From IMG/VR virus record IMGVR_UViG_2695420596_000006, positions 1-26,618 of that record: a DNA stretch of 26,618 nt; one strand, written 5' to 3'. Every line of letters begins with the position of its first letter. The stretch's first letter is position 1. This DNA comes from a virus. Lineage: Duplodnaviria > Heunggongvirae > Uroviricota > Caudoviricetes. Below are positions 5,351 to 24,753 of this stretch, piece by piece. The position numbers and the translations under genes were made by a program. The notes below the pieces were generated by a model, which was given only the letters and a program-made list of their open reading frames with translations, ran no database searches and was not told the DNA's origin.

Positions 5351-5440
5351 TTTATATTTAAACTACCGGGCGCGCGCTCGTATCCCCGCCACGCCTGCCC
5401 GCTTTATGTAGTGGTTTTCATGCACCTGCATGATCTACGC

Positions 5441-5833: not shown

Positions 5834-5843
5834 AAAAGTCACC

Positions 5844-6032: not shown

Positions 6033-6185
6033 CTTTCCTCCTATGACACCACAAGCAACACTGTATGCATAACCACTGTTTATATTTACAGCATATAATA
6101 ATCTTACTGATGTAAAACGTTTTTTTACGTTCATCAGCCTGATATGCCTGGTATTATTAAGAGCACGAATTGTTAACCCGCGTAA

Positions 6186-7232: not shown

Positions 7233-7531
7233 ACAGCACCTCCTGCAATAACATATCCTAAAGCTTCTAATGGGGTTAATGAGCGAATTGATAGCATCAC
7301 CCATTGTTCTGAAACTGCCATGACGTCATTAACCGGAAGCACATGAGAGATAACCGCGGCCCATTCCCTACCCGTAAATACGCCATGCTTCCATTCGCAA
7401 AGAGAAAGAACATCACCAACTTTATAGCCACGATCGTCTTTACGAAGTTCAGCCGTCTTTTGACCTGCAACCACAGCGTTGAAATACTTAGGTGCAATTT
7501 TTAATTGATGGATACGCACAGCCCCTGTCAT
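7229..7531 (-). CDS. Hypothetical phage protein, ASCH/DUF3850-like
   Basis: Start at [42 protein letters not shown] with GGAGGTG RBS; the pattern resembles ASCH-like beta-barrel proteins found in prophages; assignment by eye only. Confidence 0.55.
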
Positions 7532-7755
7532 ACAGCACCTCCGTTGTAATGTTTGCCTTTCAGCTCTGCGATTTCCTGACAGGTAATGCAAAGCTGCACT
7601 CCTGGAATGGCGCGGCGGCGTGCTGGCGGAATTGGCGCTTCACATTCAATGCAAAGCACGCGAGACACGCCCGGTGTTTTGGCACGGGCAGCACGGATAT
7701 GGCGCTGGCGTTCTTCTTCAACGCGCTGCTGTACGAGATCCATTGCATCAGCCAT
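7528..7755 (-). CDS. TraR/DksA-family C4 zinc-finger protein
   Basis: 75-aa ORF with C-x2-C...C-x2-C ([27 protein letters not shown]), typical of phage TraR/DksA-like zinc fingers. Confidence 0.75.
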
Positions 7756-7994
7756 TAGTGGATCTCCTGCGCTTCGTTCTGGATTGCTTCAGCGGTCACA
7801 CGCAGCAGTTCTGCCGCTTCGACGTGGTTTAGCTGGCGGGATGTGATATGACACGCAAGACTATCAAGGCGGGCAGCCATTGCTTCAGCCCTTGCCCGGC
7901 GTTCTTCCAGACGAGCCTCTGTCAGTAAAATATTAAGCCCTGCGTCATCCGGTCCGGTTTTAGTCGTGAGGGTTTCAATATTACGCATAATCAA
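7755..7994 (-). CDS. Hypothetical phage protein (79 aa)
   Basis: ORF in the same-strand early gene string; no motif assigned. Confidence 0.45.
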   Translation of the reverse strand: MIMRNIETLTTKTGPDDAGLNILLTEARLEERRARAEAMAARLDSLACHITSRQLNHVEAAELLRVTAEAIQNEAQEIH

Positions 7995-8055
7995 TTCTCC
8001 TGAATTTAGATAAAGGGATGCCCGGCGGGTTTACGCCATTAATTTCATTAGCTGG

Positions 8056-8397
8056 TTAATTCGGCATGGTTAGCCGTCTGGGAAATAAGCTCACCACTGC
8101 ACGAAAATGATTCATTGCTTTAATCAACTCCCGCTTTTCGTCAGTGGTCAGCTCATTAATGCTGATGCTATGACGTTCAGCTGGAATTTTTGCCATAAAG
8201 AATATGGCAGCCAGTGCCCGTTTATTTTGTTCGCTATTGATATCCCGTGGATCACGCATATCTTTAATAAACCGCTCAAGCTCTGACTCAATATTCAGGC
8301 CAAAAACTTTCGCCCTTAACTCCGCAATGTGATTAAGTCCATTCAGGCGTTCACCGGGGCTTAATGGAACAGTCGCCGCAGCGCCATTAATTGCCAT
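8056..8397 (-). CDS. Hypothetical phage protein (113 aa)
   Basis: ORF in the same-strand early gene string; no motif assigned. Confidence 0.5.
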   Translation of the reverse strand: MAINGAAATVPLSPGERLNGLNHIAELRAKVFGLNIESELERFIKDMRDPRDINSEQNKRALAAIFFMAKIPAERHSISINELTTDEKRELIKAMNHFRAVVSLFPRRLTMPN

Positions 8398-8419
8398 AAT
8401 TCATATCCCCAAAACGCAA

Positions 8420-8644
8420 CTATCGTTCTTTGTTCTTACGGTAACGTTCAAGAGGAGATACATTTTTTCGTATCGTCTCTTTAACCTGCTCTCCCCGTAA
8501 AAACGTCCCATCCTTTAGCGTGAAAAAGTAACTGCCATCGCCCGACAACGACGGATAACAACAGAGCAAATCATCTTCAGGTACTGAATAACTCTCCCCT
8601 CTGTAACGAAACTGATAAACCACTTCACTTTCCGCTGCATACAT
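8420..8644 (-). CDS. Hypothetical phage protein (74 aa)
   Basis: ORF in the early gene string; overlaps an alternative-frame ORF (8515..8841), so which frame is real is unresolved. Confidence 0.35.
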   Translation of the reverse strand: MYAAESEVVYQFRYRGESYSVPEDDLLCCYPSLSGDGSYFFTLKDGTFLRGEQVKETIRKNVSPLERYRKNKER

Positions 8645-8818
8645 TTTGACTTTCTCCGTTTCCTCGTGGTCAATTCAGACAGCAATTCATCTTGTGAATG
8701 ACATGGATGCCAGCGTTTACCATCCTCACCCATGATCCAGCCGTGACCGTAGTGCATTGCCGGACTTTGTTTTACCAGCAGCGATGCAAATGATGGTTCT
8801 TTCGTCAGCATAAGCACC

Positions 8819-9328
8819 TCACAGCAATCCGAATGAAGCACCGAGACCAGTTACGGTATCAACTGCACTTGCCATCGCAGGATTAGCCTGTAAACGGGCC
8901 TGCAATGAAACAGCAGCCAGCGCCATCAGTCGTGTAACAGAGTTAATGCTGCTGATCGCATCACGACGGCCTGTACTGGTTTTTACATCGCCAGAAACCA
9001 CACCAGCCGCGACACGCCCTATCTCTGCAGTTGCACTCATGACGTAATGCGGTAGTTTCTCTTTTGCCACCTCATTAATCGGAACACATGGCAGACAATG
9101 AATCTGTGCCAGAAAACCATCTACCAGCGTTGAATCTTCAGTCAGATCGGTAAGTAACCAGATATCTCGTGCAGTGAGCTGATGCGGTTGTTCCGGGTTC
9201 AGCTTGTTACGCAGCGTCTGGACGTTCATTCCCGCGAGTTCTGCTAGCTTCGCCATATTGTGACGTAGTGCAAAAGCTCTACAGGCTTCATCAAAATGCG
9301 GTTGTTTGGAAATCTTGTAATCAAACAT
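8819..9328 (-). CDS. cII: CII-type lysogeny-establishment regulator (186 CII-like)
   Basis: 169-aa ORF immediately downstream of the apl-like gene on the lytic strand; size and position match phage 186 CII; HTH-like segment (MAKLAELAGMNVQTLRNKL). Confidence 0.7.
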   Translation of the reverse strand: MFDYKISKQPHFDEACRAFALRHNMAKLAELAGMNVQTLRNKLNPEQPHQLTARDIWLLTDLTEDSTLVDGFLAQIHCLPCVPINEVAKEKLPHYVMSATAEIGRVAAGVVSGDVKTSTGRRDAISSINSVTRLMALAAVSLQARLQANPAMASAVDTVTGLGASFGLL

Positions 9329-9360
9329 GGTGCTCCCTTAGAAAGTTCCCATAATTGAAA

Positions 9361-9603
9361 CTACTTACCAACAATGACGCGGAAGTTGGAATGACCGAGG
9401 GATTCACGGACCTGATCAGTTTTGTACATTAGATAACGCAGGCTTACGCGGCCTTTGTTTTTTTCTTTCTTGACCATGTACTTAGCGAGTTGACCATGGT
9501 GAATTTTTTGGTAAACAGACCCGCGGGAAATCCCTTCCCATTCAGCGAATTCAGCAGGCGTAGCCATCTCTTTTGGTACACGAATTGAAATATCTGTGCT
9601 CAT
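9361..9603 (-). CDS. apl: Apl/Cox-type excisionase and transcriptional regulator
   Basis: 80-aa ORF, first gene of the leftward transcript, divergent from the repressor gene; HTH-like segment (ATPAEFAEWEGISRGSVYQKI); position matches 186 apl / P2 cox. Confidence 0.6.
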   Translation of the reverse strand: MSTDISIRVPKEMATPAEFAEWEGISRGSVYQKIHHGQLAKYMVKKEKNKGRVSLRYLMYKTDQVRESLGHSNFRVIVGK

Positions 9604-9705
9604 AGTGCAGTATCTCTTGGTTTAAGCTCGTTTTATGATGTTTAACCCCAACTTCTAAACTCTCATATTAGAAGTTAAATACAAAAATACGATCTCGTTA
9701 TTGGA
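9604..9705. promoter_or_regulatory. Lysis-lysogeny switch region (divergent/face-to-face promoters and operator)
   Basis: About 100-bp AT-rich intergenic region between divergent apl-like and cI-like genes; perfect 9-bp inverted repeat AACTTCTAA-N9-TTAGAAGTT at 9650..9676. Confidence 0.55.
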
Positions 9706-10356
9706 TTGTCAAATGGAGAGTTCATCTTGAAGATTAATACAGGTGCAAATACGGGAGGGAGAGAGACCATCAAAAGGCTGATGACAGCCTATGGTTTCAA
9801 CACTCAGATAGCGTTGGTTGAACACCTCGAAGCATCAAAAAGCACCATGGCAAACAGGATGTTACGTGATAGCTTCCCTGCTGACTGGGTTATTCAATGT
9901 GCCCTTGAAACAGGTATTTCTCTTCTTTGGCTGACAACGGGCCAAGGGGAAATGTATCCTCAAACAGAAGAAAAAAATAAGTTCAAAAACGAGAGTTCAC
10001 CTACAGTTCGCCCCCTTTCAAAAATAGTTATCCCATCAGTAAGGCAGGCAACCATTGAGAACGGAACTCTCGAAGAGATGGGGGATGTTTTCCTTGATCA
10101 GACTTTGATACCCGGAAAAGCCGAATATTGTTTGTACGTCAAAGCTAACGACGGCAATTACATTGTTGATACATCAACAAAACAGCTTAGTAACGGAATT
10201 TGGCTCATAGACATCGACGGTATGAAAAACATCGTCAAAATTGCGCGCATACCTGGAAACAAAATAGTAGTTAACCAAGATGACACGTCATTTGAATGTT
10301 CTGTAGATGATGTGGAAGTCGTAGGACGTGCAGTCAAAGTAATCAAGAACCTCTAA
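9706..10356 (+). CDS. cI: CI-type immunity repressor (186 CI-like)
   Basis: 216-aa ORF beginning at a TTG (an in-frame ATG at 9781 is an alternative start); N-terminal HTH region and position directly upstream of int on the lysogenic strand, as in 186/P2. Confidence 0.7.
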   Translation: MSNGEFILKINTGANTGGRETIKRLMTAYGFNTQIALVEHLEASKSTMANRMLRDSFPADWVIQCALETGISLLWLTTGQGEMYPQTEEKNKFKNESSPTVRPLSKIVIPSVRQATIENGTLEEMGDVFLDQTLIPGKAEYCLYVKANDGNYIVDTSTKQLSNGIWLIDIDGMKNIVKIARIPGNKIVVNQDDTSFECSVDDVEVVGRAVKVIKNL

Positions 10357-10359
10357 CTT

Positions 10360-11379
10360 ATGACCATCAGAAAACAGCCGAACGGAAAATGGTTGTGTGA
10401 GTGCTATCCCAATGGACGCAATGGTAAGCGCGTGCGTAAGCAATTTGCTACCAAAGGCGAAGCTATTGCATTTGAAAGCTTCACAATGGAAGAAGTGAAC
10501 AAAAAACCATGGCTGGGGGAAAAGGAAGATCGGCGACATTTATCAGAATTAATTGAGCTGTGGTATTCCCTGTATGGTCAAACACTCACAGACCCCAAGC
10601 GCCTCATGGCGAAACTTAGTATTATCTGTAATGGTCTAGGCGATCCCATCGCTTCAGAACTGACAGCCGGTGACTTTACGAAATACCGCGAAGCACGGTT
10701 AAAAGGTGAAGTACGAAATGAAGATGGCACGCTTATGTCGCCCGTTAAGCCCCGCACGGTAAACCTTGAACAGCGCAATCTATCATCTGTTTTTGGTACA
10801 CTGAAAAAGCTGGGCCACTGGTCAGCCCCCAACCCGCTTGCCGGGCTGCCAACATTTAAAATTGCTGAGAGTGAATTGGCGTTCCTGACCCCGGAAGAAA
10901 TTAAACGTCTGCTGGATGCCTGTGCTGATTCTCAAAGCTCTAGTCTGCTGACGGTTGCAAAAATATGTCTGGCCACCGGCGCGAGATGGAGTGAAGCCGA
11001 AAACCTGCAGGGCCATCAATTGTCAAAATACCGGATCACCTACACCAAAACTAAAGGCAAGAAAAACCGAACCGTACCGATATCTCAGGAGCTATATGAA
11101 GAACTCCCCAAAAACAGAGGGAAACTATTCACGCCCTGCAGAAAAGCTTTTGAGCGCGCAGTAAAACGAGCCGGTATAGACCTGCCTGAAGGCCAGTGCA
11201 CACACGTGTTGCGCCATACATTCGCCAGTCACTTCATGATGAATGGCGGAAACATATTGGTACTACGCGATATTCTTGGTCACTCTGATATAAAAATGAC
11301 GATGGTTTATGCTCATTTTTCGCCAGATCATTTAGAAGATGCTGTAACAAAAAATCCACTGGCTATGTTGGGATACTGA
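10360..11379 (+). CDS. int: Tyrosine integrase, P2/186 type
   Basis: 339-aa ORF; C-terminal catalytic region HVLRHTFASHFMMNGGNILVLRDILGHSDIKMTMVYAHF contains the R...H-x-x-R...Y tyrosine-recombinase signature; starts 4 nt after the cI stop. Confidence 0.9.
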   Translation: MTIRKQPNGKWLCECYPNGRNGKRVRKQFATKGEAIAFESFTMEEVNKKPWLGEKEDRRHLSELIELWYSLYGQTLTDPKRLMAKLSIICNGLGDPIASELTAGDFTKYREARLKGEVRNEDGTLMSPVKPRTVNLEQRNLSSVFGTLKKLGHWSAPNPLAGLPTFKIAESELAFLTPEEIKRLLDACADSQSSSLLTVAKICLATGARWSEAENLQGHQLSKYRITYTKTKGKKNRTVPISQELYEELPKNRGKLFTPCRKAFERAVKRAGIDLPEGQCTHVLRHTFASHFMMNGGNILVLRDILGHSDIKMTMVYAHFSPDHLEDAVTKNPLAMLGY

Positions 11380-11381
11380 TA

Positions 11382-12413
11382 ATGGAAAAAAGCATTAGCA
11401 CATTTATGTACCTATCCGTTTTATTAGGTTGTATATTCTTATTTATAAAATATCGACTTTATGTTCTCGATCATAGAAGCTTGTTCCAACAACCCTTGTT
11501 CTGGGCTGCAATAGGCCTACCTTTATTCACCAGCCTTTACTTTGGTTCTTTTGTCTGGATAGATAAAATACACTCTTTTAGTCTTACAAGTCACGGTTAT
11601 GAGAGATTTTTAGATATCTCGAAATTACCATTACTCATCCTTGCATCTGCAGTACCTTTAGTTTCAATAGTAAACAACCTACACAGAACCAAACAAACAG
11701 AAAAACAGATCTCAGAGGCAGAAAGGAAAAACAGGGTAGATTTATATTACAACCACATGAAATTTCATCTTGATTTATATAAAAAAATCGAAGGAAAAAG
11801 AATAGGCAGCTACTACCCGGTTCAGGAAGCTCAAGCTGAAGCAATCTACCAACATTTTATAAAACATCCACAAGAACTATATAGAAAAGCATACCCACAA
11901 TCTACGCCTGATGATTCTCAACAATTAGATATTAATGAGCAATTTGTTATTGATTTACACAAATGTTGGGTAGAAATCAACGCAAGACTCAAGCAATTAT
12001 CCGAGAGTGAAAATCAAATACATCCTACAGAGGAACTTTGCACAACAAAGATGAGAATATTTGTAGGCGTTATGATTATTTATGAAAAAACTTGTAAACT
12101 GTTGTGTTTAGGTGGATTTCATTATAAAAAGTCATTTGTAATAAATGATAGTTATAATAAATACCAAGTTTATTCACCATTTTATGATTTTGGCACTCTG
12201 TACGAATCACTGCAATCCTTAGAAGAGATAACCTACGCCTTCTTGGATACTTGCAGAAATGAAGTGGTAAACTTGTACTTCCCTATAGAAGATAAAATTT
12301 TGATATATGGTGAAGGGATTCTAGAGAATTGGTTCAAGTATTCTCAGTTCTTGATCACTATAGCTTATCAACCCGCCAAGATGTCTCGCTTACCCCAGCT
12401 GAGACGCGATTGA
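11382..12413 (+). CDS. Hypothetical membrane-anchored protein (343 aa), moron gene between int and att
   Basis: ATG 2 nt after the int stop (TGA-TA-ATG); three hydrophobic segments in the first ~100 residues then a ~240-residue soluble domain with no motif assigned; visibly more AT-rich than neighbouring phage genes. Confidence 0.65.
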   Translation: MEKSISTFMYLSVLLGCIFLFIKYRLYVLDHRSLFQQPLFWAAIGLPLFTSLYFGSFVWIDKIHSFSLTSHGYERFLDISKLPLLILASAVPLVSIVNNLHRTKQTEKQISEAERKNRVDLYYNHMKFHLDLYKKIEGKRIGSYYPVQEAQAEAIYQHFIKHPQELYRKAYPQSTPDDSQQLDINEQFVIDLHKCWVEINARLKQLSESENQIHPTEELCTTKMRIFVGVMIIYEKTCKLLCLGGFHYKKSFVINDSYNKYQVYSPFYDFGTLYESLQSLEEITYAFLDTCRNEVVNLYFPIEDKILIYGEGILENWFKYSQFLITIAYQPAKMSRLPQLRRD

Positions 12414-12529
12414 TGATGGCGACATTTTGGCGGCAGAGCTTTAAAAACAGATAAAACTGTCAAACACCACATAACACTAACGTATTGTTTTTAAACATAA
12501 ATCATTATTTTTTCTGTAGTAAAAATGGT

Positions 12530-12574
12530 ATGTAGGAATTTCGGACGCGGGTTCAACTCCCGCCAGCTCCACCA
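12530..12574 (+). repeat. 45-bp ssrA 3'-end core (att site copy 2)
   Basis: Exact repeat of 1016..1060; the preceding bases diverge from ssrA. Confidence 0.9.
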
Positions 12575-12608
12575 ATTTTTGATATATTGAAGTTCAGTGA
12601 AGTCTATC

Positions 12609-12643
12609 AAGCCCGCATGGAACCAGCCTTGCGGGCTTTTTTA
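12609..12643 (+). terminator. Rho-independent terminator downstream of the second ssrA-end copy
   Basis: AAGCCCGCA-loop-TGCGGGCTT hairpin followed by TTTTTTACG. Confidence 0.7.
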
Positions 12644-12740
12644 CGTCTATAGTAGTCTACCGAGAATTGCTAGAATCTACTCGTTATGGCACCCTTTTTG
12701 GGACCCAACACAAAGGGTCCAAAACATGAGGGTCCCAAAC

Positions 12741-13970
12741 ATGGCAAAAATCGCTAAGAAGCTCACTGACACTGAAATCAAAAGCACCAAACCTGCCGAG
12801 AAAGAGGTTAACCTTTTTGACGGCGATGGTTTGCTCCTGCGAATCGCCCCCTTAGCGAAGGGAGGAAAGAAAAATTGGTATTTCAGATATGCAGTGCCTG
12901 TGACCAAAAAGCGAACTAAGGTGAGCTTAGGAACCTATCCTCACCTTACACTTGCGAAGGCACGAGCTTTACGTGATGAGTACTTGTCGTTGCTTGCAAA
13001 TGGTATAGACCCACAAGTTCATAACACCCACAAAGCCAATGCCCTTAAGGATGCAACGGAACATACATTTCAAGCAGTAGCCAAGAAGTGGCTTGATGAG
13101 AAAGTCAAAACGTCAGGCATCTCCCAGGATCATGCTAACGACATCTGGCGAAGCCTAGAGAGAAATATCTTTCCAACGTTGGGTGATACCCCCATTAAGG
13201 AGATTCGCCCTAAAATGCTTAAACAGCATTTAGACCCCATAGAAAAACGAGGTGTCCTTGAAACACTTCGCCGCGTCATATCCCGCCTGAATGAAATTTT
13301 CCGCTATGCAGCAACAGAAGAACTCATAGAATTCAATCCGGCTGACAACCTGGGGCAACGGTTCAGCAAGCCAAAAAAACAGAATATGCCAGCATTACCC
13401 CCTTCCGAACTCCCCCGCTTCCTGGTTGCTCTAAACAATGCTTCTATCCGTTTAGAAACAAGGCTACTGATTGAGTGGCAACTTCTCACATGGGTTCGCC
13501 CTGGTGAAGCTGTTCGCACAAGATGGTCAGATATTGATATAGAAACCAGCATGTGGAACATCCCGGCGGAGTTTATGAAAATGAAGAAGCCTCACAAAGT
13601 TCCACTGAGCAAAGAATCTTTGCGAGTCTTGGATTCAATGAAAGCCATCAGCGGGCATAGAGAGTGGGTTTTTCCCAGTATCAAAGCTCCACTCAATCAC
13701 ATGCATGAACAAACAGCTAATGCGGCTATAATCCGTATGGGCTTCGGAGGTGAGCTTGTAGCTCATGGTATGCGATCAATCGCTAGAACGGCGGCTGAGG
13801 AGTGTGGCAAGTTTAGAACTGATGTCTTAGAAGCCGCCCTTGCCCACTCGAAAAAAGATGAAATAATTGCAGCCTACAATCGTGCAGAGTATCTCACAGA
13901 ACGTGTGGTTCTCATGCAATGGTGGAGTGACTATGTTTCGTCTCAAAAATACAAAGTTATTGCCGCATAA
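12741..13970 (+). CDS. int: Tyrosine integrase, P4/CP4-57 type
   Basis: Start at MAKIAKKLTDTEIKSTKP (ORF track begins further upstream at 12597, inside the terminator); N-terminal arm-binding pattern and C-terminal H-x-x-R ... Y region (HGMRSIARTAAEE ... IIAAYNRAEYLTER). Confidence 0.88.
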   Translation: MAKIAKKLTDTEIKSTKPAEKEVNLFDGDGLLLRIAPLAKGGKKNWYFRYAVPVTKKRTKVSLGTYPHLTLAKARALRDEYLSLLANGIDPQVHNTHKANALKDATEHTFQAVAKKWLDEKVKTSGISQDHANDIWRSLERNIFPTLGDTPIKEIRPKMLKQHLDPIEKRGVLETLRRVISRLNEIFRYAATEELIEFNPADNLGQRFSKPKKQNMPALPPSELPRFLVALNNASIRLETRLLIEWQLLTWVRPGEAVRTRWSDIDIETSMWNIPAEFMKMKKPHKVPLSKESLRVLDSMKAISGHREWVFPSIKAPLNHMHEQTANAAIIRMGFGGELVAHGMRSIARTAAEECGKFRTDVLEAALAHSKKDEIIAAYNRAEYLTERVVLMQWWSDYVSSQKYKVIAA

Positions 13971-14252
13971 CTCTTCCATGATGGGTTAACTATCTTGATT
14001 TATTTGAAGAATTAATGATCACACCATTAACCTATGTGGACTAAGCATAGCCATTTACAAATGGGTACCTTGAGGCCAAATAACGAAAGCTGTCGGTCAT
14101 ATCAGCTAAATAATTCACATCTCTTCTCGATTATCATACACCTCGAAGAACTACCAAATTCGCTCTAATCAATGATAAAACAGTTGAATTCGGTTAAAAT
14201 TTGATCAATTTTATCCTCTACATTGTATTGAATCATCCATGAGGTTTTGTGC

Positions 14253-15809
14253 ATGGCTAGCGGAAATGAAAAAAATCATAGAGTTAGGGTCGCACAGTAC
14301 TTGAGGATGTCTACCGACCATCAGCAATATTCTTTACATAATCAGTCTGAATATATCAAAGATTATGCTGAAAAGAACAATATGGAAATCGCTTATACCT
14401 ACGATGATGCAGGTAAGAGCGGAGTCAGTATCGTAGGCAGGCATTCTTTGCAGCAGTTACTTAGCGATGTAGAACAAAAGAAAATAGATATACAGGCTGT
14501 ATTATTTTATGATGTGAGCCGTTTTGGTCGTTTTCAAAATAGTGATGAAGCTGCATATTATTCCTTTCTATTTGAAAGAAATGGTGTAGATCTTATATAT
14601 TGTTCCGAACCTATACCCACTAAAGATTTCCCTTTAGAGTCCTCTGTTATACTGAATATAAAAAGATCAAGTGCTGCATATCACAGCAGGAATCTATCTG
14701 AAAAGGTATTTATAGGGCAAGTAAATTTAATAAAGCTTGGTTATCATCAAGGCGGTATGGCTGGTTATGGGCTGAGACGTCTTTTAGTAGACGAAAATGG
14801 CATAGCTAAAGAAATATTGAATTTCCGCAAAAGAAAGAGTATTCAAACAGATAGGGTAATATTAATTCCGGGACCAAAAAATGAAATAAAAATTGTAAAT
14901 AGAATCTATGATCTCTTTATAGATAGTAACGTCCCAGAATTCATTATTGCTGAGAGATTAAATGAACAGAGCATACCTGCAGAAAATGGAACATCATGGA
15001 CTCGTGCAAAAATACATCAAATTTTGACAAATGAAAAATATATTGGAAACAACATATATAACAAAACCTCATCTAAACTAAAAAGTAAGCTTGTAAAAAA
15101 CCCCAAACATGAATGGATTAGATGTGACAAGGCATATAAACCAATTATTTCAAAGAAAAAATATAATAAAGCTCAAGAAATAATTCAGCTCCGATCCATT
15201 CATTTGACTAATGAAGATCTATTAGAAAAGCTAAAAGAAAAATTAGAATCTAATGGAAAACTATCAGGCTTTATCATTGATGAAGATGATACAGGCCCTT
15301 CATCTTCTGTTTATAGAACCCGATTTGGTGGTCTTTTAAGAGCATATACTTTGATTGGTTATAAGCCAGAACATGATTACAGCTATCTCCAAATAAATGA
15401 AGCACTAAGATCATTTTACTCAGAGATAATTGAGGATTTTAAGGGCGAAATATTAAAAAGTAACTGTCATATAGACGAGTATAAATATTACCCAATGCTT
15501 TACATCAATGATGAGTTTTTAATTTCCGTCCTTGTTACTAAATGCATACATATGAAATCAGGTAAACTTAGATGGAAAGTCCGGTTTGATAACTCACAGA
15601 AAGCAGACATAACAATTGTTATACGAATGAATTCACAAAATATTTCACCTCTTGATTTTTATATCATACCAAAGATTGAAAACGAATATAGTAAAATGTG
15701 TATGATGGAAACAAACAACATTCGGTTAGATCTCTATAGATTTGATAATCTTGATAAATTTCTACAAATTATTACTCGCATGAAAGTGAGGGAACTATAT
15801 GCTGCCTGA
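14253..15809 (+). CDS. Large serine recombinase (resolvase/invertase catalytic domain plus recombinase domain)
   Basis: Start at ATG with GAGG 8 nt upstream; N-terminal VAQYLRMSTDHQQ...GKSG...VLFYDVSRFGRF is the serine-recombinase catalytic pattern; 518 aa; strongly AT-rich. Confidence 0.8.
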   Translation: MASGNEKNHRVRVAQYLRMSTDHQQYSLHNQSEYIKDYAEKNNMEIAYTYDDAGKSGVSIVGRHSLQQLLSDVEQKKIDIQAVLFYDVSRFGRFQNSDEAAYYSFLFERNGVDLIYCSEPIPTKDFPLESSVILNIKRSSAAYHSRNLSEKVFIGQVNLIKLGYHQGGMAGYGLRRLLVDENGIAKEILNFRKRKSIQTDRVILIPGPKNEIKIVNRIYDLFIDSNVPEFIIAERLNEQSIPAENGTSWTRAKIHQILTNEKYIGNNIYNKTSSKLKSKLVKNPKHEWIRCDKAYKPIISKKKYNKAQEIIQLRSIHLTNEDLLEKLKEKLESNGKLSGFIIDEDDTGPSSSVYRTRFGGLLRAYTLIGYKPEHDYSYLQINEALRSFYSEIIEDFKGEILKSNCHIDEYKYYPMLYINDEFLISVLVTKCIHMKSGKLRWKVRFDNSQKADITIVIRMNSQNISPLDFYIIPKIENEYSKMCMMETNNIRLDLYRFDNLDKFLQIITRMKVRELYAA

Positions 15810-16695
15810 AAAAAATGAATTCCCAATAATTCAAATTGAGATTGCAAAAATAAAATTTCTTAACCCACGAACAAGAAATAAGGTAGTGCATGAAGAAATA
15901 AAGGAAAGCATAAAAAAAAGAGGATTAAGCAAGCCTATAAGCGTAAGAGCTATTGATGAAGACGATTTCAAATATGCTTTAATTTGTGGTCAAGGGAGAA
16001 TAGAGGCTCTTGTTGCATTAGGTGAAACTATTATTCCAGCAATTATAAGAGATGTATCAGAAGAAGATGCTTACGTTATGAGTTTAGTTGAAAACATTGC
16101 AAGGAGAAGACCACGTTCTAATGAGTTATTACAGGTGATTAAAGACATGAAAATCAGAGGACTTTCAGACTCCGAAATAAGTGAGATTACTGGATATTCA
16201 TCGAACTGGGTGAGCAGTATTAATATGCTTCTTGATAAGGGAGAGCATAAACTTCTCTCAGCAGTCGAACGGGGTAATTTGCCTCTGTATCTCGCAGTGC
16301 AATTTGCAAGATGTGAAACTGAGGAAGCACAAGATATTCTTACCGAAGCATATGATAAAAAATTAATAAAAAGTCGGGACATTATAAAGATAAAATACAT
16401 TCTAAATCAAAGAACAGTTGGAAATAAAGGTGCAAAAGCAGCCGGATTTTATTATCACAAACCATCAAAAAGGATGACTGCAGAGGAGTTGATTGAGCTT
16501 TATGAAAATAGTATCGCTGAACATAAATCTGTTTATAACAACTCGAAATTTATAAAAACCAATCTACTAATAATAAATGAGATTTTTAACATCATAATGA
16601 TGAATAAAAGCTTTCAAAATATACTTGAACAAGAGAATCTTTCAGAACTACCATCTCAGATATTAAACCCAGTAAACAAAGAGGTATCAAAATGA
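15799..16695 (+). CDS. ParB/Srx-like N-terminal domain protein (298 aa)
   Basis: Overlaps the recombinase stop by 11 nt; N-terminal IQIEIAKIKFLNPRTRN...SIKKRGLSKPISVRAID...YALICGQGRIEALVALGETIIPAIIRDVSEEDAYVMSLVENIARR matches the ParB N-terminal domain pattern including the G-x-x-R box. Confidence 0.75.
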   Translation: MLPEKNEFPIIQIEIAKIKFLNPRTRNKVVHEEIKESIKKRGLSKPISVRAIDEDDFKYALICGQGRIEALVALGETIIPAIIRDVSEEDAYVMSLVENIARRRPRSNELLQVIKDMKIRGLSDSEISEITGYSSNWVSSINMLLDKGEHKLLSAVERGNLPLYLAVQFARCETEEAQDILTEAYDKKLIKSRDIIKIKYILNQRTVGNKGAKAAGFYYHKPSKRMTAEELIELYENSIAEHKSVYNNSKFIKTNLLIINEIFNIIMMNKSFQNILEQENLSELPSQILNPVNKEVSK

Positions 16696-17588
16696 TTCAG
16701 ATACGTTTTGGCAAAAATTTTATTTACCTGGAAACTAATAAGTTAATTCCATCTAAGGAATTATTAGAAAACGTAAAGCGAAGCCATAAATATCATCAAA
16801 TAGTTACCTCTATCGAAAGCTTGGGTATTATTGAACCAATAATAGTATTCTATGACAAAGATAAAGATGTCACTAAGATACTTGATGGCCATTTAAGGGT
16901 TGAGGCTTTAAAAGACTTAGATATAGAAAAAGCTCCATGTATACTTTCGAGCATAGATGATGCTTTCACTCCTAACAAACAAGTGAATCATATAAATGTA
17001 GTTGAAGAACATAGAATGATAATTAAGTCTCTGGCAAAAGTATCAATTGAAAAACTTAGTGCTGCTTTGGGCATATCTGTTGATGCCATAAAAGATAAAG
17101 CTAATGTGATGAACGGCATAGATCCAAGTGTAATTGCGAAACTTTCTGATAAACCTATACCTAAGGCTACATTTGACGTTTTGAGGAAAATGAAGCCAAT
17201 TCGTCAAATTGAAGCAGTCGGTACAATGATTAATTTTGATAATTATAGTAAAAAATTTGCAATGAGCATCTTGGATGCAACACCGTCATCGATGATAGTA
17301 AATAAAGGGAAAAACACTCCCTATAAAAAGGACATAAAAAAAACCATACTTCGTCTGGAACAAGAAATGGCAACAACTTCGGAAGAAACGAAAAAACTTC
17401 AAACCGAGTATGGTTCAGATATGTTGAAATTCGTTATAATCCAGTCATATATTAATAAATTACTTGGCAACTCTAAAGTTCTTCATTGGTTCTTAGAAAA
17501 CGAGGTTGATTATCTTAATGAGTTAAAAAGAATTTCTAGAATAAATTCTTTGGATGATAAGACTCTTACTGAAAACAGCCAGTCATAG
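16692..17588 (+). CDS. Second ParB/Srx-like domain protein (298 aa)
   Basis: Start overlaps the previous stop (ATGA); N-terminal ...HKYHQIVTSIESLGIIEPIIVFYDKDKDVTKILDGHLRVEALKDL... resembles a ParB-like domain. Confidence 0.65.
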   Translation: MIQIRFGKNFIYLETNKLIPSKELLENVKRSHKYHQIVTSIESLGIIEPIIVFYDKDKDVTKILDGHLRVEALKDLDIEKAPCILSSIDDAFTPNKQVNHINVVEEHRMIIKSLAKVSIEKLSAALGISVDAIKDKANVMNGIDPSVIAKLSDKPIPKATFDVLRKMKPIRQIEAVGTMINFDNYSKKFAMSILDATPSSMIVNKGKNTPYKKDIKKTILRLEQEMATTSEETKKLQTEYGSDMLKFVIIQSYINKLLGNSKVLHWFLENEVDYLNELKRISRINSLDDKTLTENSQS

Positions 17589-18261: not shown

Positions 18262-18640
18262 ATCCTATTGTTCTTGAATGAATAATGCCAATTATAAAAG
18301 AAGCAAGGGCTAACCCTACGAAGCCGCTGCGCTTGTTTCTTTGGGTTCCCCTTGCTTTTCTTCCCTTCGGTTAGAAAAGAAAATCCAGCCCAGTTTATCA
18401 ACTATCTACAGTATTCCCACTAAAGAGTAACCGCCACTTTATACTCCGTTTGTGAGCTGAGGCTACTGTAGCATTTTTGGGTTTAAATTTTCTATCATTA
18501 CCAGTTGTTGTGTCGGGATAAAAATATTTTCTCGCATCCAACCATAAAGATATCAGATTTGCTATCATCATCACTTCACATAATGAAACTTTTTAAGTAG
18601 GCCTAAAATACAAGGCCTACTTAATAGCCGGAGATAGTTA

Positions 18641-19546
18641 TTATTTAGATGCTAAAATAGTATTTTTATTGAATTTTTCATCAGCATCTGTAAGCTTTTT
18701 CATTATTAAAGCAGGGGCTATATCCTGAAGCTCCGTAGATTTTATGAAAAAATAATTACAAAGGTAAATTATATTATTAAGATTAATTGGTATATCAATA
18801 TTATAATCTAACATTAACGATAACAAACGATCTCTGTCAATTCTATAAAACTTTTTACCAAGCTCTTTCTCATTAATTATTGAAATTATCTTTTCATCAA
18901 GCTTATCGTCCATTCTCAATCTTAATTTATTTCTTAGCATAGCGGACCATGCGCTTGACTTATAATTTCTATATGCTAAATCCTCAAATAACTTCATTAT
19001 TCCCCAATCAGATGTTTCCAAAGAGGCGTAAATTCCATTCAGCGCGCGACTAAGGTCATTATGCTCAACCCAATCCTCTTTGCACTTATAGCGTAGATCA
19101 TGCTCAACTTCATGCCATCCTTCAGATAAAATAGTTCTAAATTGGACTTCAAAAGTAGTATCAATATAAGAATATTTCTTTAATAAGACACTATCATTTG
19201 ATAATACTTCTGGTAACTTAAAGACGTAATTGCATCGAGTTGCCGCAAAGAGATTAGCCGTGGTTTCGTCTACGGTTTTAGATTCAATTTCGAATAATTT
19301 CTCCAGTGTTTTTTGAGCAATAAATAAATCATCAGGAAAATATAATATTATCCTAACCCCAAATAAGTCTTGAATTTTTTTACCATCCTCTGAGTATTTA
19401 TTAGGCTCTTTTTCATATTTCTTAATTATTGAGCTTTCTGATTTTGTCCTCGAAAAAAAACGATAAAGTAATCCAATACGATTAAGTTCATCTTCTATAT
19501 CTTTTTGCAAACTTTGAATAATTCGCAATTCATTCCCGTTATACAT
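18641..19546 (-). CDS. RelA/SpoT-homologue (RSH) nucleotidyltransferase-fold protein, toxSAS-like (301 aa)
   Basis: Start ATG overlaps the upstream stop (ATGA); contains DLFGVRIILYFPDD and EVQFRTILSEGWHEVEHDLRYK, matching the synthetase-domain motifs D-x-x-G-x-R and E-x-Q-x-R-T...W-x-E...H-x-x-x-Y-K; C-terminal ~140 residues unassigned. Confidence 0.8.
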   Translation of the reverse strand: MYNGNELRIIQSLQKDIEDELNRIGLLYRFFSRTKSESSIIKKYEKEPNKYSEDGKKIQDLFGVRIILYFPDDLFIAQKTLEKLFEIESKTVDETTANLFAATRCNYVFKLPEVLSNDSVLLKKYSYIDTTFEVQFRTILSEGWHEVEHDLRYKCKEDWVEHNDLSRALNGIYASLETSDWGIMKLFEDLAYRNYKSSAWSAMLRNKLRLRMDDKLDEKIISIINEKELGKKFYRIDRDRLLSLMLDYNIDIPINLNNIIYLCNYFFIKSTELQDIAPALIMKKLTDADEKFNKNTILASK

Positions 19547-21651
19547 CAGAAATTCCTCCCAAGAATTGCTTTAATCTCTGATATTCTTGCCATGTTAAGT
19601 TCAAGGAACGAACGCTTGTCTGGCGTAAGTAAAAGACCGTCTTTCCTCAATTTATCTAAAGAATGGAGTATTTCACTTAACTGAAATTGATTGTTGTTAG
19701 AACATAAGCCTTTTATAGGCCGATGCTTATGATAGCTAACACTCCCTCTGGGACAGAACTTCTCTAAGATGTAAATATCACAATCTGTAATATCGTGATC
19801 ATTTTCACTGTTTATCTCGACAGATTTTTTATTAATAGCATCATTGTCACATTCACATCCCAAAAAATAAATATCTTCCCTACCACTTAATTCGTTAAAA
19901 CTACAATCTATAAAAGAACAGTTCACGAATGTAACGTTTTTATAATTACCACAGGTAAATATGCTGCTAAAAAACGAACAATCAACAAAGATAGTATCAT
20001 GTATTATATTTATATCGCCTAAAGAAAGTTTTGATATAGACAATTGCTCAACACTATCATTTTTTAAATCTAATGGAACTTTTCCTATAAGCAAATGACT
20101 ATAAAGGATTTTATCATTACCTGACATAAAATATAAAGCAAACTCTAAGCTATGCCAAAGTAATTCTTTTTCATCATCGATCCTCGGCATATAAGATTGC
20201 ACTGCTGGTTCTATAAAACGTTTATCACCAATCCATTCATTTGACTTATCATTAATAATATTTTCAGAAACAAAATTACCAAGAACAAATTCATTAACAA
20301 ATCCAATACCTTGGTTTTCTGAGCCTGACCGATCTAATAGAGCATGCGATGCTAATTTATTAACTAATTCGTCAGTAGTTGGTCTTTCATCTACAGTATA
20401 AAGCTTTCTTGTAGCCTCCAAGAGTTGTTGATTCTTTTCAGTTATGACTAACGATATATACTCTCTAGACTCAGATGTGTAGTTACCCTCGACCATGTCG
20501 TCAGCTATTATTTTTAGTATAGTATATTGATCTTCAATAGACATTAATAAATCTTGTCTTTTTCTTTCTCGCTCAAGCATTGAATCAAAATACTTCCTCA
20601 CTATAGTTGTTGGGTCGCTTATAACTTTATTAAAGTCGGTGTCGTCGATGCATCTTAGAAATGATAGCAGTACAGGGTTTGATAATTTGTTAAGAGGAAA
20701 TCCTGTCGATGAAATTTCATCTAAACGTTGACCTGGAAGCCAGTCTTCAATTTGTGGTTCATGAATTCTTATTCTTATCACATCAAAATCTTCTTGATGT
20801 GATGCTATCCACTGATGGAATTCATCTCCGTCAAATATAGCTGTTCTTCGAGTTGTCAAAACCACTTTTGCACTATCAGTTAGAAGCTCACTTATTGTTT
20901 CCAGCATTGGCTCTGTTTTTTCATAATTATTTTCAATTCCGTTTGTACTTTCATGCAATAGTTCATCAAACCCGTCAAGTATAACTGGTACATTTCCTGC
21001 TCTTATTTCATTCCTTACTAAGGCTGAGCTTAACAAAGGAAAACTTCTATCAATTTCATCTAATAGTACATACCTGAATATTTTTGCTTGCCTATTCCTT
21101 GATAGTTCTGAAAATAATGGTATTTTCCCTATATTGTTAACTATAATCTCCCTCAATAATTCATACGCCGTGCAAGTCTTTCCAAAACCGGCTGCAGCCT
21201 CAATCAAAAACAGAATTGGACGCCTATGTTGTATTCTCTCTAATATTTCCGTAACAACATTAGCTTCGCCAATAACACCATTTAAGTAATATTTTGAATT
21301 TATGTAGGAATAAGTTGCAGTAGGTGAGTGAATTTTTACAATTGAATCTGTGAAAGTATTATAATCTTTAATCAACCTTTCTTTAGTTGAATCGACGCTA
21401 AAGAAGCCATTAAATAATTCCTTATGTGCTTCTTCATAAGACTGATATTTTTTAATTTGACATGCATAACCTAACTGCCTATATTCTTCAAAGGTTTGAT
21501 TTACATTAACCTCATTATTTAGTGGAAGTATGTCCGCGTTATGGTAGTGCCCTGTTTTAATAGAATATACAGCAATACTTTCGTTACCTGTATTTTCTTC
21601 AGTAAAACCAAACCTTTTATATATCTCTGTAAGTTTGCTTTTTCGTAACAT
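19546..21651 (-). CDS. NACHT-type STAND NTPase with C-terminal pentapeptide-like repeats (about 701 aa)
   Basis: Start at ATG preceded by AGGAGG (ORF track adds 3 codons from a GTG); Walker A LIEAAAGFGKT and Walker B VPVILDGFDELLHE (h-h-h-h-D-G-h-D-E, NACHT-typical); C-terminal FVDCS/FFSSI/FTCGN/YKNVT/FVNCS/FIDCS/FNELS five-residue periodicity; N-terminal ~130 aa unassigned. Confidence 0.8.
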   Translation of the reverse strand: MLRKSKLTEIYKRFGFTEENTGNESIAVYSIKTGHYHNADILPLNNEVNVNQTFEEYRQLGYACQIKKYQSYEEAHKELFNGFFSVDSTKERLIKDYNTFTDSIVKIHSPTATYSYINSKYYLNGVIGEANVVTEILERIQHRRPILFLIEAAAGFGKTCTAYELLREIIVNNIGKIPLFSELSRNRQAKIFRYVLLDEIDRSFPLLSSALVRNEIRAGNVPVILDGFDELLHESTNGIENNYEKTEPMLETISELLTDSAKVVLTTRRTAIFDGDEFHQWIASHQEDFDVIRIRIHEPQIEDWLPGQRLDEISSTGFPLNKLSNPVLLSFLRCIDDTDFNKVISDPTTIVRKYFDSMLERERKRQDLLMSIEDQYTILKIIADDMVEGNYTSESREYISLVITEKNQQLLEATRKLYTVDERPTTDELVNKLASHALLDRSGSENQGIGFVNEFVLGNFVSENIINDKSNEWIGDKRFIEPAVQSYMPRIDDEKELLWHSLEFALYFMSGNDKILYSHLLIGKVPLDLKNDSVEQLSISKLSLGDINIIHDTIFVDCSFFSSIFTCGNYKNVTFVNCSFIDCSFNELSGREDIYFLGCECDNDAINKKSVEINSENDHDITDCDIYILEKFCPRGSVSYHKHRPIKGLCSNNNQFQLSEILHSLDKLRKDGLLLTPDKRSFLELNMARISEIKAILGRNF

Positions 21652-21770
21652 TAAACTCACCTCCTGATATTTTTCGCAATGATGCTATAGTCGCTGTATG
21701 AACTTTTAATATAATATTACAAAAACCATCTACATAGCTACCGCCTAAGCAATAATAGCTATGTAGAGAT
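21652..21770 (-). promoter_or_regulatory. Putative promoter/operator of the NACHT-RSH operon
   Basis: AT-rich upstream region; perfect 11-bp inverted repeat CTACATAGCTA-N15-TAGCTATGTAG at 21730..21766. Confidence 0.35.
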
Positions 21771-22526
21771 TATCTGTAAGAGAACAGTTCAACGGTTACG
21801 TGCACGTTATGACATCGTTCTAACTTCATGGGGTGCTCAGTAACAGAACTTTTAAGCCATTCTTGCTCGCTGAACATGCAGTCATACCTATCACAAGCAG
21901 TACAACCATTACTTAGCAGACCTCTGCTTCTTGTTCCAAAAGGAACGTAAACCAGATGTTAGAGTTAACAAAACTGAAAGCCACTGCCCCCCAAATCTCC
22001 AAGTCAAACATTAGAGACTTTAAGTGAGCTCAGCCCAGATTATGCATTCTAATCAATTTCCAAATAATCAATCGGGCTAAGCCGTGGTGGTCATCGCGCC
22101 AATCCCCATAATGAAGGATACATCTTGGCTGTATCATCTTCCTTACAGCTGCGTTTCAACATGTGCTGAACAACACTCAAGTTAATGTAAATGAGCCAGT
22201 GAATACAACATCTGTTTCAAATCACTTTGAAGTTTTCTTCACTTAATGTGTACGCCAAAATTATCCGGATAAACATAGAGTAACGGTCGACCGGGATTAC
22301 AATCAACCAGTTTCATCTCTAGTAAGCGATATTCTTATGGCGGCAGCGGAATGTTCTGACAACCCCACTGAGGCGGTGCTACAGAATCTTATCGAAGCCA
22401 AACATCAGCTACGTTTCCCTAGATGTTAAAATCAGTAGTCGCAGGGCCAATGCTAATGATCCACACATTGACCGTGAAGGGGCCTTTCAGGTGGGTACGA
22501 CTGCATTCCAAGTGACCACCGCACCT

Positions 22527-22763
22527 ATGGAGAAATTGATTTCACACTGTATCAAAATCAAACGCGCAGGCTACAGGCCGGTCATCCTAACTCTTGAAAG
22601 CAAGGTCATTGCAGCACGCCAGCTGGCTGATAACGTTGGTATGTCTGAACTGATAGCCATCCAGGCAGCTGAAACTTTCATTGGTAACAATATTGAAGAG
22701 ATTGCTATTTATGACGGCGATAAAATCCGTGAGAGTCTCGCAAGATTGATACATCTCTTATGA
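22527..22763 (+). CDS. Hypothetical small protein, possibly a gene remnant (start uncertain; frame opens at 22440)
   Basis: Only open frame in about 1 kb; followed by a hairpin plus T-run; no motif assigned. Confidence 0.3.
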   Translation: MEKLISHCIKIKRAGYRPVILTLESKVIAARQLADNVGMSELIAIQAAETFIGNNIEEIAIYDGDKIRESLARLIHLL

Positions 22764-23799: not shown

Positions 23800-24753
23800 A
23801 TGAGTAACTATACAGAAGATAATTTATTTGACAGCAAAACTAAAAAAGACGTCCAGAATTGCATTGCTGCAGGCATTGACATTAACACACTTAATGAACA
23901 CGGTGAAAACGCCCTTTTCGGTTGCGACAGTATCGGGGCTTTAAAAGCCATGATTGAAGCAGGCATAGCGCTGAACCATACAGATTGTTATGGTAATAAT
24001 GCCCTGTTTAGCAGAAAAAGCCCACGTGCAGTGAGGCTATTGATAAAGTCAGGTATTAACGTTCACCACAAAAATAATAAAGGCCAGTCCTGTCTTCACT
24101 GGCAGCGCTACGCCATAGATTGTGCGGAACTCCTCATAAACGCGGGCATTGATATCCACAGCACAGATAACGAAGGACAAACGCTTCTTTATGACCTCCT
24201 CGATCATGACGTCTTTGATTACTGGGTAAATAAAGGGTGTGACATAAACCACAGAGATTATGGTGGCAAAGCGGTGCTGGATCTTCCGACTGACAACGAG
24301 TGGTGGATATATGATTTCAGTATTAATGCCCTCAAACGCCATGTTGATAGAATAGACAGCACGCCAGTATTATTTAAACATGTTTCAACTGAGGCTTTGC
24401 CTCTAATTGCTTTGCTTCATGAAAAAGGGCGTAATATCCTTATCGCTGAACACTGTTCCTTCGCATTATATGTCAAAAACATGAAGTACTTCTTTACCTC
24501 ACTGAAAAAATATACCGATATCAGTCATGTTCAGTTTTATAATTGTTATCATGATAAACATATTGGTATCTACACCGGCATAGAAAGTGTGAAATGGTTT
24601 ATTCGAAATGGTATCCGAATGGACGACGATATACTCAGACAGCGTTCTGACTCCGATAAGATTTTTTCTTATATCGCAGCAAGAGAGAAAAAAGACCTGT
24701 TAAAAGAAATGAAGCCAGAGATCCCCCGTTCATCTGTACGAAAAAGACTCTAA
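23800..24753 (+). CDS. Ankyrin-repeat protein (317 aa)
   Basis: ATG preceded by AAGGAG 14 nt after the previous stop; about four ankyrin-like repeats (GENALFGCDSIGALKAMIEAGIALNHTDCYGNNALF...LLIKSGINVHHKNNKGQSCLHW...LLINAGIDIHSTDNEGQTLLYD...); C-terminal ~150 aa unassigned. Confidence 0.75.
   Translation: MSNYTEDNLFDSKTKKDVQNCIAAGIDINTLNEHGENALFGCDSIGALKAMIEAGIALNHTDCYGNNALFSRKSPRAVRLLIKSGINVHHKNNKGQSCLHWQRYAIDCAELLINAGIDIHSTDNEGQTLLYDLLDHDVFDYWVNKGCDINHRDYGGKAVLDLPTDNEWWIYDFSINALKRHVDRIDSTPVLFKHVSTEALPLIALLHEKGRNILIAEHCSFALYVKNMKYFFTSLKKYTDISHVQFYNCYHDKHIGIYTGIESVKWFIRNGIRMDDDILRQRSDSDKIFSYIAAREKKDLLKEMKPEIPRSSVRKRL

Follow-up and report, generated by a model that had tools for sequence, protein, structure and literature searches.

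Within a 26,618-nucleotide (nt) stretch of DNA assigned to a virus of the Caudoviricetes (IMG/VR record IMGVR_UViG_2695420596_000006, positions 1 to 26,618; hereafter the window), we identified two overlapping genes, A and B, that probably form a two-gene conflict module, most likely anti-phage, in which the NACHT protein encoded by gene A would serve as sensor and switch and the RelA/SpoT-homologue (RSH) enzyme encoded by gene B would act in trans as effector. An open reading frame (ORF) check of the window placed both genes on the minus strand, as follows:

19546..21651, minus strand: gene A, 701-amino-acid (aa) bacterial NLR-related NACHT NTPase; RefSeq WP_000944877.1 is the same protein
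18641..19546, minus strand: gene B, predicted 301-aa RSH pyrophosphokinase; RefSeq WP_000282312.1
21660..21665, minus strand: Shine-Dalgarno sequence AGGAGG, with an 8-nt spacer to the gene A ATG
19544..19548, minus strand: stop/start junction TGATG, where the TGA stop of gene A shares its A with the ATG of gene B

The best start for gene A is the ATG at 21651, which gives a protein of 701 aa as in the RefSeq entry. ORFs of 701 and 301 codons in DNA of 32% G+C, with domain matches at the E-values given below, are far beyond what chance would produce.

A gene A profile was used to scan one genome per species, and 56 loci were recovered from Gamma-, Beta-, Epsilon- and Alphaproteobacteria, Bacteroidota (including Bacteroides, Prevotellaceae, Alistipes and Porphyromonas), Firmicutes (including Paenibacillus, Cohnella, Blautia and other Clostridia), Myxococcales and Treponema. 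Three loci end at a contig edge and were left out of the pairing count; at all 53 loci that extend past gene A, a gene B homologue is the next gene on the same strand. The frames overlap at 39 of these 53 loci, by 4 nt at 18 and by 1 nt at eight, a gap of 1-6 nt separates them at nine, and at 48 they overlap or lie no more than 10 nt apart. The 4-nt ATGA arrangement is thus the commonest form in the family, and it was the one that a first-pass annotation of this DNA, made by a model from the letters alone, had assigned to the present pair; an overlap does exist here, only that it reads TTC-TGA-TG and measures 1 nt. When the look-up was reversed, a protein with the N-terminal NA-iREase2 domain of gene A was encoded directly upstream of the gene B homologue in eight of eight cases (Pseudomonas aeruginosa, Vibrio parahaemolyticus, Aeromonas, Pseudomonas, Serratia, Acinetobacter baumannii and two metagenomic fusion variants). 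Co-occurrence of the homologues had been named in the first-pass annotation as a check on its proposal, and it holds from either side. Pairwise identities of the A and B proteins also co-vary (r = 0.90, 47 pairs). Clustering of all ORFs flanking the gene A loci revealed no third conserved gene, whether antitoxin, hydrolase or regulator; the other ORF clusters that seemed conserved at these loci were antisense shadows inside A and B, and swapping of the effector downstream of A homologues was not seen within the family reached. Sequence analysis could hardly give more certainty on the nature of the two components and on their obligate linkage. Hosts of the module include the pathogens P. aeruginosa, V. 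parahaemolyticus, V. cholerae, A. baumannii and S. marcescens as well as gut commensals, and some loci are flanked by restriction-modification genes, AbiEii, Abi_2, PD-Lambda-5, PDC-S14/S57, Mrr-like genes, integrases or transposases.

The product of gene A can be divided into five segments:

21274..21627, minus strand: NA-iREase2 domain, aa 9-126 (Pfam PF22723, E 1.4e-33)
20317..21273, minus strand: NACHT NTPase module, aa 127-445 (motifs, Pfam and model)
20077..20316, minus strand: helical region, aa 446-525 (secondary structure of the model)
19852..20076, minus strand: pentapeptide-repeat beta-helix, aa 526-600 (Pfam, profiles and model)
19549..19851, minus strand: variable linker and small alpha/beta C-terminal domain, aa 601-701 (model; no known family)

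NA-iREase2 stands for "NACHT-associated inactive restriction endonuclease 2" in Pfam. None of the catalytic residues of restriction endonucleases (REases) is conserved in this N-terminal domain across 47 gene A homologues, in agreement with the family name; some of its residues are invariant within the close family and not conserved across the wider one. As its N-terminal domain belongs to an inactive-REase family and has not kept the catalytic residues, gene A is predicted to be without an enzymatic effector domain, and we propose that the iREase2 domain acts as an adaptor. A separate observation concerns a Pseudomonas lineage (loci L072 and L073, positions 993-1859), where a gene encoding Mrr_cat/NA-iREase1 plus a zinc ribbon lies 28 nt upstream of the NACHT gene; this product is related to the dead nuclease fold of the NACHT N-terminus but looks active.

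The NTPase core of gene A carries the Walker A motif GFGKT (aa 155-159) and the Walker B motif ILDGFDE (aa 224-230), both already noticed in the first-pass annotation. G155, G157, K158 and T159 are at least 95% conserved among the 47 homologues, and so is the D226-G-F-D-E230 stretch, which fits the NACHT-specific Walker B signature D[GAS]hDE given by Kibby et al. The same level of conservation, maintained over 47 pairs down to about 30% identity, applies to the sensor arginine R268 and to the winged-helix histidine H436, the latter a putative counterpart of NLRC4 H443. The Pfam NACHT model itself (PF05729) matches aa 153-274 below its gathering score (17.5 bits against a cut-off of 26.7, E 0.004), while a precomputed PF05729 match is present in several gene A homologues and RefSeq names the protein "NACHT domain-containing". 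The AlphaFold model of gene A (predicted local distance difference test score, pLDDT, 83) has NOD2, NLRP2, Avs4, NLRP3 and NAIP5 as its top Foldseek matches in the PDB (E 1.5e-8 to 1.7e-6). On the conservation of Walker A, D-G-F-D-E, R268 and H436, together with these NLR-like model matches, the NACHT assignment is solid despite the sub-threshold Pfam score. C-terminal to the core, the pentapeptide periodicity that had been noticed earlier received weak but consistent support around aa 526-600, from Pfam (E 6e-4 to 3e-3) and from profile matches to McbG-like, Qnr and MfpA proteins (E 1.5e-4), and corresponds in the model to a short beta-helix of about 75 aa with five-residue periodicity. No Pfam match was obtained for the orphan domain at aa 612-701. 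Variability among the 47 homologues is lowest in the NTPase core and highest in the pentapeptide region, the linker and the C-terminal domain, as is usual for a sensor attached to a switch, and the C-terminal region as a whole (helical region, pentapeptide repeats and small domain) is presumed to be the sensor.

Gene B in turn comprises two domains:

19067..19471, minus strand: RSH synthetase domain, aa 26-160 (Pfam, motifs and structure comparison)
18644..19066, minus strand: family-specific all-helical domain, aa 161-301, rich in conserved basic residues (no known family)

The Pfam RelA_SpoT model (PF04607) scores above its gathering threshold (56.8 bits against a cut-off of 27, E 3.2e-15), and the synthetase motifs DLFGVR, EVQFRT and WHEVEH..YK, reported for this 301-aa protein in the first-pass annotation, are all present. 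In consensus form, the synthetase motifs of gene B are RxKxxxSxxxK (R33, K35, S39 and K43), DxxGxR (D60, G63 and R65), ExQxRT (E133, Q135, R137 and T138) and H..YK (H149, Y153 and K154) plus H145; R33, K35, S39, K43, D60, R65, E133, Q135, R137, H145, H149, Y153 and K154 are at least 95% conserved in the 47 pairs, to about 30% identity. Judged by their motifs, both gene A and gene B look active. A profile built from 38 gene B homologues matched only small alarmone synthetases (SAS) in the PDB, and gene B is structurally similar to solved SAS enzymes in the order RelP/RelQ > CapRel > Tas1 > FaRel, a ranking that is uninformative on the acceptor substrate given that all of these share the same fold. 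To CapRel, gene B aligns over the catalytic domain only (150 of 344 residues). In gene B the acceptor-stacking motif, which reads GY.S.H in RelQ and RelP, is divergent (F100...R104-C105-N106, in an ambiguous alignment), and we draw no claim on the acceptor from it because two HMMER alignments disagree on the register. For the orphan segment at aa 152-301 Pfam returned no match. Profile and structure searches therefore support the NACHT and RSH folds that the first-pass annotation had put forward.

To place gene B among its relatives, an exhaustive profile search was carried out, yielding 231 cluster representatives at E <=1e-30. A sister group of 590-680 aa (P0327, P0334, P0339, P0345 and others; alignment A4) begins with this RSH plus helical module and continues into some 350 aa with a match to the defence candidate HEC-07 of PADLOC (E down to 4e-16), and one such gene (L086, 863-2794) adjoins a prophage integrase and is found without a NACHT gene. 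The RSH plus helical module of gene B thus seems to behave as a portable effector cassette. Rare variants of gene B, P0281 (427 aa) and P0390 (430 aa), end in an additional HD domain whose H..HP, HD, ED and D..HN motifs are intact. The genes of such variants (L081, 4279-5571; L082, 2478-3770; L083, 2439-3722; L084, 2395-3678) lie directly downstream of NA-iREase2-NACHT genes, which those of P0281 and P0390 overlap. The best solved relative of this HD domain is Aph1 (7SMG, E 1.7e-18), ahead of (p)ppGpp hydrolases (8e-10 or worse). Aph1 hydrolyses (p)ppApp and not (p)ppGpp, and is an immunity enzyme against (p)ppApp-synthesising toxins (PMC10083569). The fusion of an Aph1-like HD domain to rare B variants is what suggests (p)ppApp as the product of gene B, an identification that we regard as doubtful. 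Another relative, P0362 (710 aa), has the RSH plus helical module fused to an AAA_28 nucleotide-kinase-like P-loop domain and a weak CYTH (triphosphate tunnel) domain.

Natural alleles of the module were examined by searching a 3.5-kb query (window 18400-21900) against 5426 complete Escherichia coli genomes. Some part of the query was found in 80 of them, always on the chromosome and at >=99% identity in all but one, and in 54 genomes a single place covers most of it. Of the E. coli records listed, 45 have a normal B gene; in these, with the state of A taken from annotation, gene A is intact in 22, intact with IS2 in the upstream region in four, and split, interrupted by an insertion sequence or truncated in 19. 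The lesion itself was checked in four of the 19. Strains from South Korea, Vietnam and Japan share a single-T deletion around position 20610 that splits gene A into ORFs of 349 and 332 aa and leaves B intact; strain ML35 retains B, but IS3 has cost it the 5' half of gene A; and RM10410 has IS2 and ISVsa5 insertions at gene A (loci of the inactivated alleles: L076-L078, L080 and L079). In pig strains from Quebec, IS2 lies upstream of gene A in the promoter region, a position verified in one strain. The gene A lesions amount to only about seven or eight independent events. To judge from these alleles, gene B is tolerated without a functional gene A.

From these data we consider an immune role of the module likely, and signalling from A to B the more plausible direction. 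The roles of A as sensor-switch and B as effector follow from the NLR-like layout of a protein that has no effector of its own, and from the N-terminal effector position that the RelA domain takes in fused NLR proteins; the cassette-like behavior of the catalytic and helical module of B, seen in the HEC-07-like sister fusions, also argues for B as the effector. In the proposed mechanism, the C-terminal region of gene A would sense a trigger, upon which the NACHT module would exchange nucleotide and oligomerise, as expected from its family. Recruitment or de-repression of B could then follow, either through the clustered iREase2 domains at the N-terminus or through a different surface of A. With ATP as donor, B would pyrophosphorylate the 3'-OH of an acceptor, as its conserved catalytic motifs suggest, and the infected cell would arrest growth or die. 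The Aph1-like fusions make ATP or ADP the leading candidate acceptor, with (p)ppApp as product, and GTP/GDP or the CCA end of tRNA would be the alternatives. That the NACHT protein senses infection and licenses the RSH enzyme was one of two readings offered in the first-pass annotation; it is the one favored here, and its immune function and direction are what we infer rather than observe.

The other reading offered there, in which a CapRel-like, self-inhibited RSH enzyme with its own sensor happens to adjoin an unrelated NACHT sensor, is now very improbable. The C-terminal domain of gene B could indeed be autoinhibitory, and the sister proteins, which fuse the same module to another C-terminal region, occur without a NACHT gene. 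However, linkage at 53 of 53 loci and in eight of eight reverse look-ups, with overlapping frames and correlated divergence across at least five phyla, is difficult to reconcile with mere adjacency, A would be left without an effector domain, and no CapRel-type C-terminal domain is present in B, whose alignment to CapRel covers the catalytic domain alone. A toxin-antitoxin pair, with B as a constitutively toxic enzyme of the toxSAS type and A as a large antitoxin that releases B, or is degraded, on infection, would account for a bicistronic overlapping layout resembling that of toxSAS operons (PMC7229694), for the known participation of RSH toxins such as CapRel, a structural match of gene B, in phage defence, and for the rare variants that add an Aph1-like hydrolase, an immunity or antitoxin enzyme in other systems. 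We nonetheless hold it to be unlikely: B persists intact beside broken A genes, with A not annotated as intact in 19 of the 45 listed records with normal B, which argues against A holding B in check, as an essential antitoxin is not expected to be the first gene to go; the NTPase switch of A is fully conserved, and its architecture is sensor-like in the manner typical of activating NLRs; and the known toxSAS antitoxins are small proteins or small alarmone hydrolases (SAH).

The wiring could also run in reverse, B making an alarmone that loads the NACHT pocket or another site of A, and A delivering the output through a pentapeptide DNA mimic or through iREase. NACHT modules are nucleotide-regulated, the pentapeptide proteins Qnr and MfpA inhibit DNA-binding enzymes (an idea discussed in PMC7159879), and iREase2 keeps some invariant residues within the close family. 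Yet conservation of those residues does not extend to the wider family, no sensor domain can be recognised in B, the short and highly variable pentapeptide segment (about 75 aa) fits a sensor better than an effector, and in fused RelA-NACHT proteins it is the RelA domain that holds the N-terminal effector position, so that we rate this arrangement as quite unlikely. It is improbable, finally, that the module has nothing to do with immunity and is an NTPase-regulated alarmone synthetase for stress response or persistence, at the service of the host or of mobile-element stability. Enzymes of the RelP/RelQ type are physiological alarmone synthetases, no PADLOC system matches the pair, and many loci lie between housekeeping genes without defence neighbors; against this stand the patchy distribution, the horizontal spread across phyla and the AT-rich island, the toxin domains carried by NACHT clade-mates that have been shown to be anti-phage, the domain shared between the sister family and the defence candidate HEC-07, and the existence of Aph1-like "immunity" fusions.

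Several observations weigh against a defence module in which A activates B, the reading that we prefer. Many loci are bare two-gene islets rather than parts of defence islands, and the module is rare on viral contigs, where only four gene B loci were found, three of them the E. coli island itself. PADLOC-DB 2.0.0 has no model for A, no family having been matched in the scan, and gave for B only a weak match to PDC-S33 (E 8e-5 over 77 residues). No shared homotypic adaptor joins A and B: when the halves of B were compared with six segments of A by hhalign in search of a domain resembling effector-associated domains (EAD), the probability stayed below 2% throughout. Moreover, the viability of A-null alleles could stem from polar loss of B expression.

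With respect to known systems, the pair maps to none in PADLOC-DB 2.0 or NCBIfam, the two databases in which a named system was sought; matches of A and B to NCBIfam 20.0 fell far below the cut-offs, with no system assignment. The operon was also not described in the literature that was found, including supplementary data from Kibby et al., from DefensePredictor and from the STAND survey of 2026, a coverage that leaves many subscription articles outside. The first-pass annotation knew of no system with this split architecture, and as regards the operon this still stands. Its proposal withstood all of the computational checks by which it had said that it could be refuted. The architecture of A, on the other hand, is already catalogued: in the bNACHT work of Kibby et al. 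(2022/2023), Table S1 lists NA-iREase2+NACHT+Pentapeptide within clade 15, where V. cholerae WP_142737953.1 and Paenibacillus daejeonensis WP_020618620.1 share the domain order of gene A with nearly the same boundaries (the P. daejeonensis locus was recovered in our profile scan as L058). According to the same table, the N-terminus is occupied by TIR, phospholipase-like or other toxin domains in other proteins of this NACHT clade, and Kibby et al. name "alarmone synthetases" among NACHT-fused effector domains. The novelty is thus narrower than had been supposed. The partner RSH gene is not described in the text and tables of Kibby et al. that were available, and the architecture of gene A does not appear there among the 27 bNACHT genes tested; the clade 15 members tested, according to the same material, were bNACHT09 (TIR), bNACHT34 and bNACHT69 (single gene, no defence recorded). 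Gene A resembles the bNACHT proteins in its DGFDE signature, its conserved winged-helix histidine and its tripartite NLR-like layout. It differs in that most of the validated proteins are encoded by single genes and have either an enzymatic effector at the N-terminus or a short SNaCT domain at the C-terminus, whereas its own N-terminal domain appears catalytically dead and the enzyme is encoded by a second gene to which gene A is obligately linked.

Fusions of RelA_SpoT with NACHT are known from fungi, where the RelA-type domain occupies the N-terminal effector position (PMC4986451), and a protein with Tox-RelA, NACHT, pentapeptide and beta-propeller segments is listed for the foraminifer Reticulomyxa. 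These fungal and protist NLRs (Dyrka et al. 2014; Reticulomyxa) combine the same RelA/SpoT-type and NACHT modules, with the pentapeptide after the NACHT in the protist, but they do so in one polypeptide with WD40 or beta-propeller sensors, whereas genes A and B are separate and an inactive REase domain sits in gene A where the RelA domain sits in the fusions.

Gene B is closer to RelP/RelQ than to CapRel and the toxSAS enzymes, both by sequence and by fold. With these (FaRel, FaRel2, PhRel and PhRel2, in addition to CapRel) it shares the predicted RSH-fold pyrophosphokinase effector and the bicistronic or overlapping operon. CapRel is a single-gene, fused toxSAS toxin-antitoxin that acts as a tRNA pyrophosphokinase. 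Gene B lacks its C-terminal pseudo-zinc-finger domain, having in that place an unrelated helical domain. Membership in the CapRel type was considered for gene B and set aside, as the all-helical C-terminus has no family match and the gene is paired with A in all of the gene A and reverse look-ups. In toxSAS toxin-antitoxin operons, which are bicistronic, the antitoxins are small proteins or SAH enzymes (Jimmy et al. 2020; PMC7229694), whereas the partner of gene B is a 701-aa NACHT NTPase and gene B is kept when gene A is broken. Assignment of gene B to the toxSAS pairs was likewise discarded, this NTPase being its only conserved partner and one that alleles lose while keeping the RSH gene. 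Tas1/Apk1 and Apk2-Aph1 (PMC10083569) also have the RSH fold, and the rare B variants with an Aph1-like HD domain mirror their logic of a toxin and a hydrolase conferring immunity; those toxins, however, are delivered (as PAAR fusions of the type VI secretion system or as phage MuF fusions) and neutralised by Tis1 or Aph1, whereas gene B would encode a cytoplasmic enzyme paired with an NLR-like NTPase and with no hydrolase in E. coli. The Avs/AVAST proteins are STAND NTPases with the same sensor and effector logic, and Avs4 is among the top structural matches of gene A, but gene A falls in the STAND clade with the NACHT signature, is matched by no PADLOC Avs model, and differs from Avs proteins with their fused nuclease or other effector and large sensors resembling tetratricopeptide repeats.

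In its full form, the model would describe a widespread bacterial NLR pathway, ranging from E. coli, Vibrio and Pseudomonas to Firmicutes and the Bacteroides of the gut, in which a NACHT oligomer docks through a dead REase fold and activates a synthetase of (p)ppApp, or of a related 3'-pyrophosphate, that aborts infection by poisoning nucleotide metabolism; we put this forward tentatively, as a possibility somewhat short of even. If true, it would constitute the first immune axis from an NLR to an RSH enzyme and a prokaryotic counterpart of the fungal and protist RelA_SpoT-NLR fusions, for whose fungal members it would offer a tractable E. coli model. It would also add RelA/SpoT-type pyrophosphokinases as an effector class in bacterial NLR immunity, indicate that a NACHT sensor can drive a separately encoded effector through an inactivated nuclease domain, and join NLR-like phage sensing with toxic alarmone synthesis or tRNA pyrophosphorylation. 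The Aph1-like fusions provide a direct prediction on the product of gene B, and the presence of the module in pathogens and gut commensals means that it may shape phage host range. Being widespread, small and clonable from E. coli, and making sharp predictions, the module is worth testing.

The regions bordering the module contain the following candidate signals:

21717..21779, no strand assigned: imperfect inverted repeat, arms 21717-21740 and 21756-21779 of 24 nt each
21752..21780, minus strand: promoter-like -35/-10 pair CTTACA, 17 nt, TATTAT (consensus match only, 9/12)
18593..18624, no strand assigned: perfect 12-bp inverted repeat TTAAGTAGGCCT, 8 nt, AGGCCTACTTAA, located 17 nt past the gene B stop

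The operator-like inverted repeat that had been noticed 5' of gene A does exist; its arms are 79% complementary, with a 15-nt spacer and an 11-bp perfect core (CTACATAGCTA/TAGCTATGTAG), and it is a possible operator. The promoter-like site overlaps it, some 100 nt ahead of the ATG of gene A. The 12-bp hairpin 3' of gene B is a possible terminator.

The G+C content of the module is 0.31-0.33, compared to about 0.50 at the window ends, and the island adjoins smpB-ssrA, with the transfer-messenger RNA (tmRNA) gene at 698-1060, in agreement with its earlier description as AT-rich cargo in an ssrA island. Integrases, a serine recombinase, two ParB-like genes, an ankyrin protein and a relaxase are also present in this island. 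The left 18.6 kb of the window is covered to no more than 76% by any complete E. coli genome, and a SEFIR-domain protein is annotated in one related genome somewhere within the match to this part. The island is composite within 1184-13970, where a prophage remnant (Dam-type methyltransferase, 6186-7304; CI repressor, 9706-10356; integrase, 10360-11379) is followed by a second integrase (12597-13970) that is intact in the window and disrupted by IS100 in strain ETEC4073. Starting 3 nt after the P2-type integrase gene of the remnant, a frequent position of prophage cargo, a plus-strand ORF of 343 aa (11382-12413) without Pfam or PADLOC match lies in a patch of 35-38% G+C. Further along, a serine recombinase gene (14247-15809, plus strand) precedes tandem genes for 298-aa ParB-like proteins (15799-16695 and 16692-17588, overlapping by 4 nt), the first of which is frameshifted in ETEC4073, while the second weakly matches the N-terminus of a type II methyltransferase model. 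Just upstream of the gene A/B module is a decayed restriction gene, a 90-aa plus-strand ORF (22491-22763; DUF4928 in RefSeq) that corresponds to the C-terminal third of a type II REase model (PADLOC REase_II, E 7.5e-42). Two further plus-strand ORFs have weak matches to PADLOC candidates: an ankyrin-repeat protein at 23800-24753 (PDC-M72A, E 3e-8), and a 160-aa ORF at 1184-1666 that adjoins ssrA (PDC-S48, E 2e-7).

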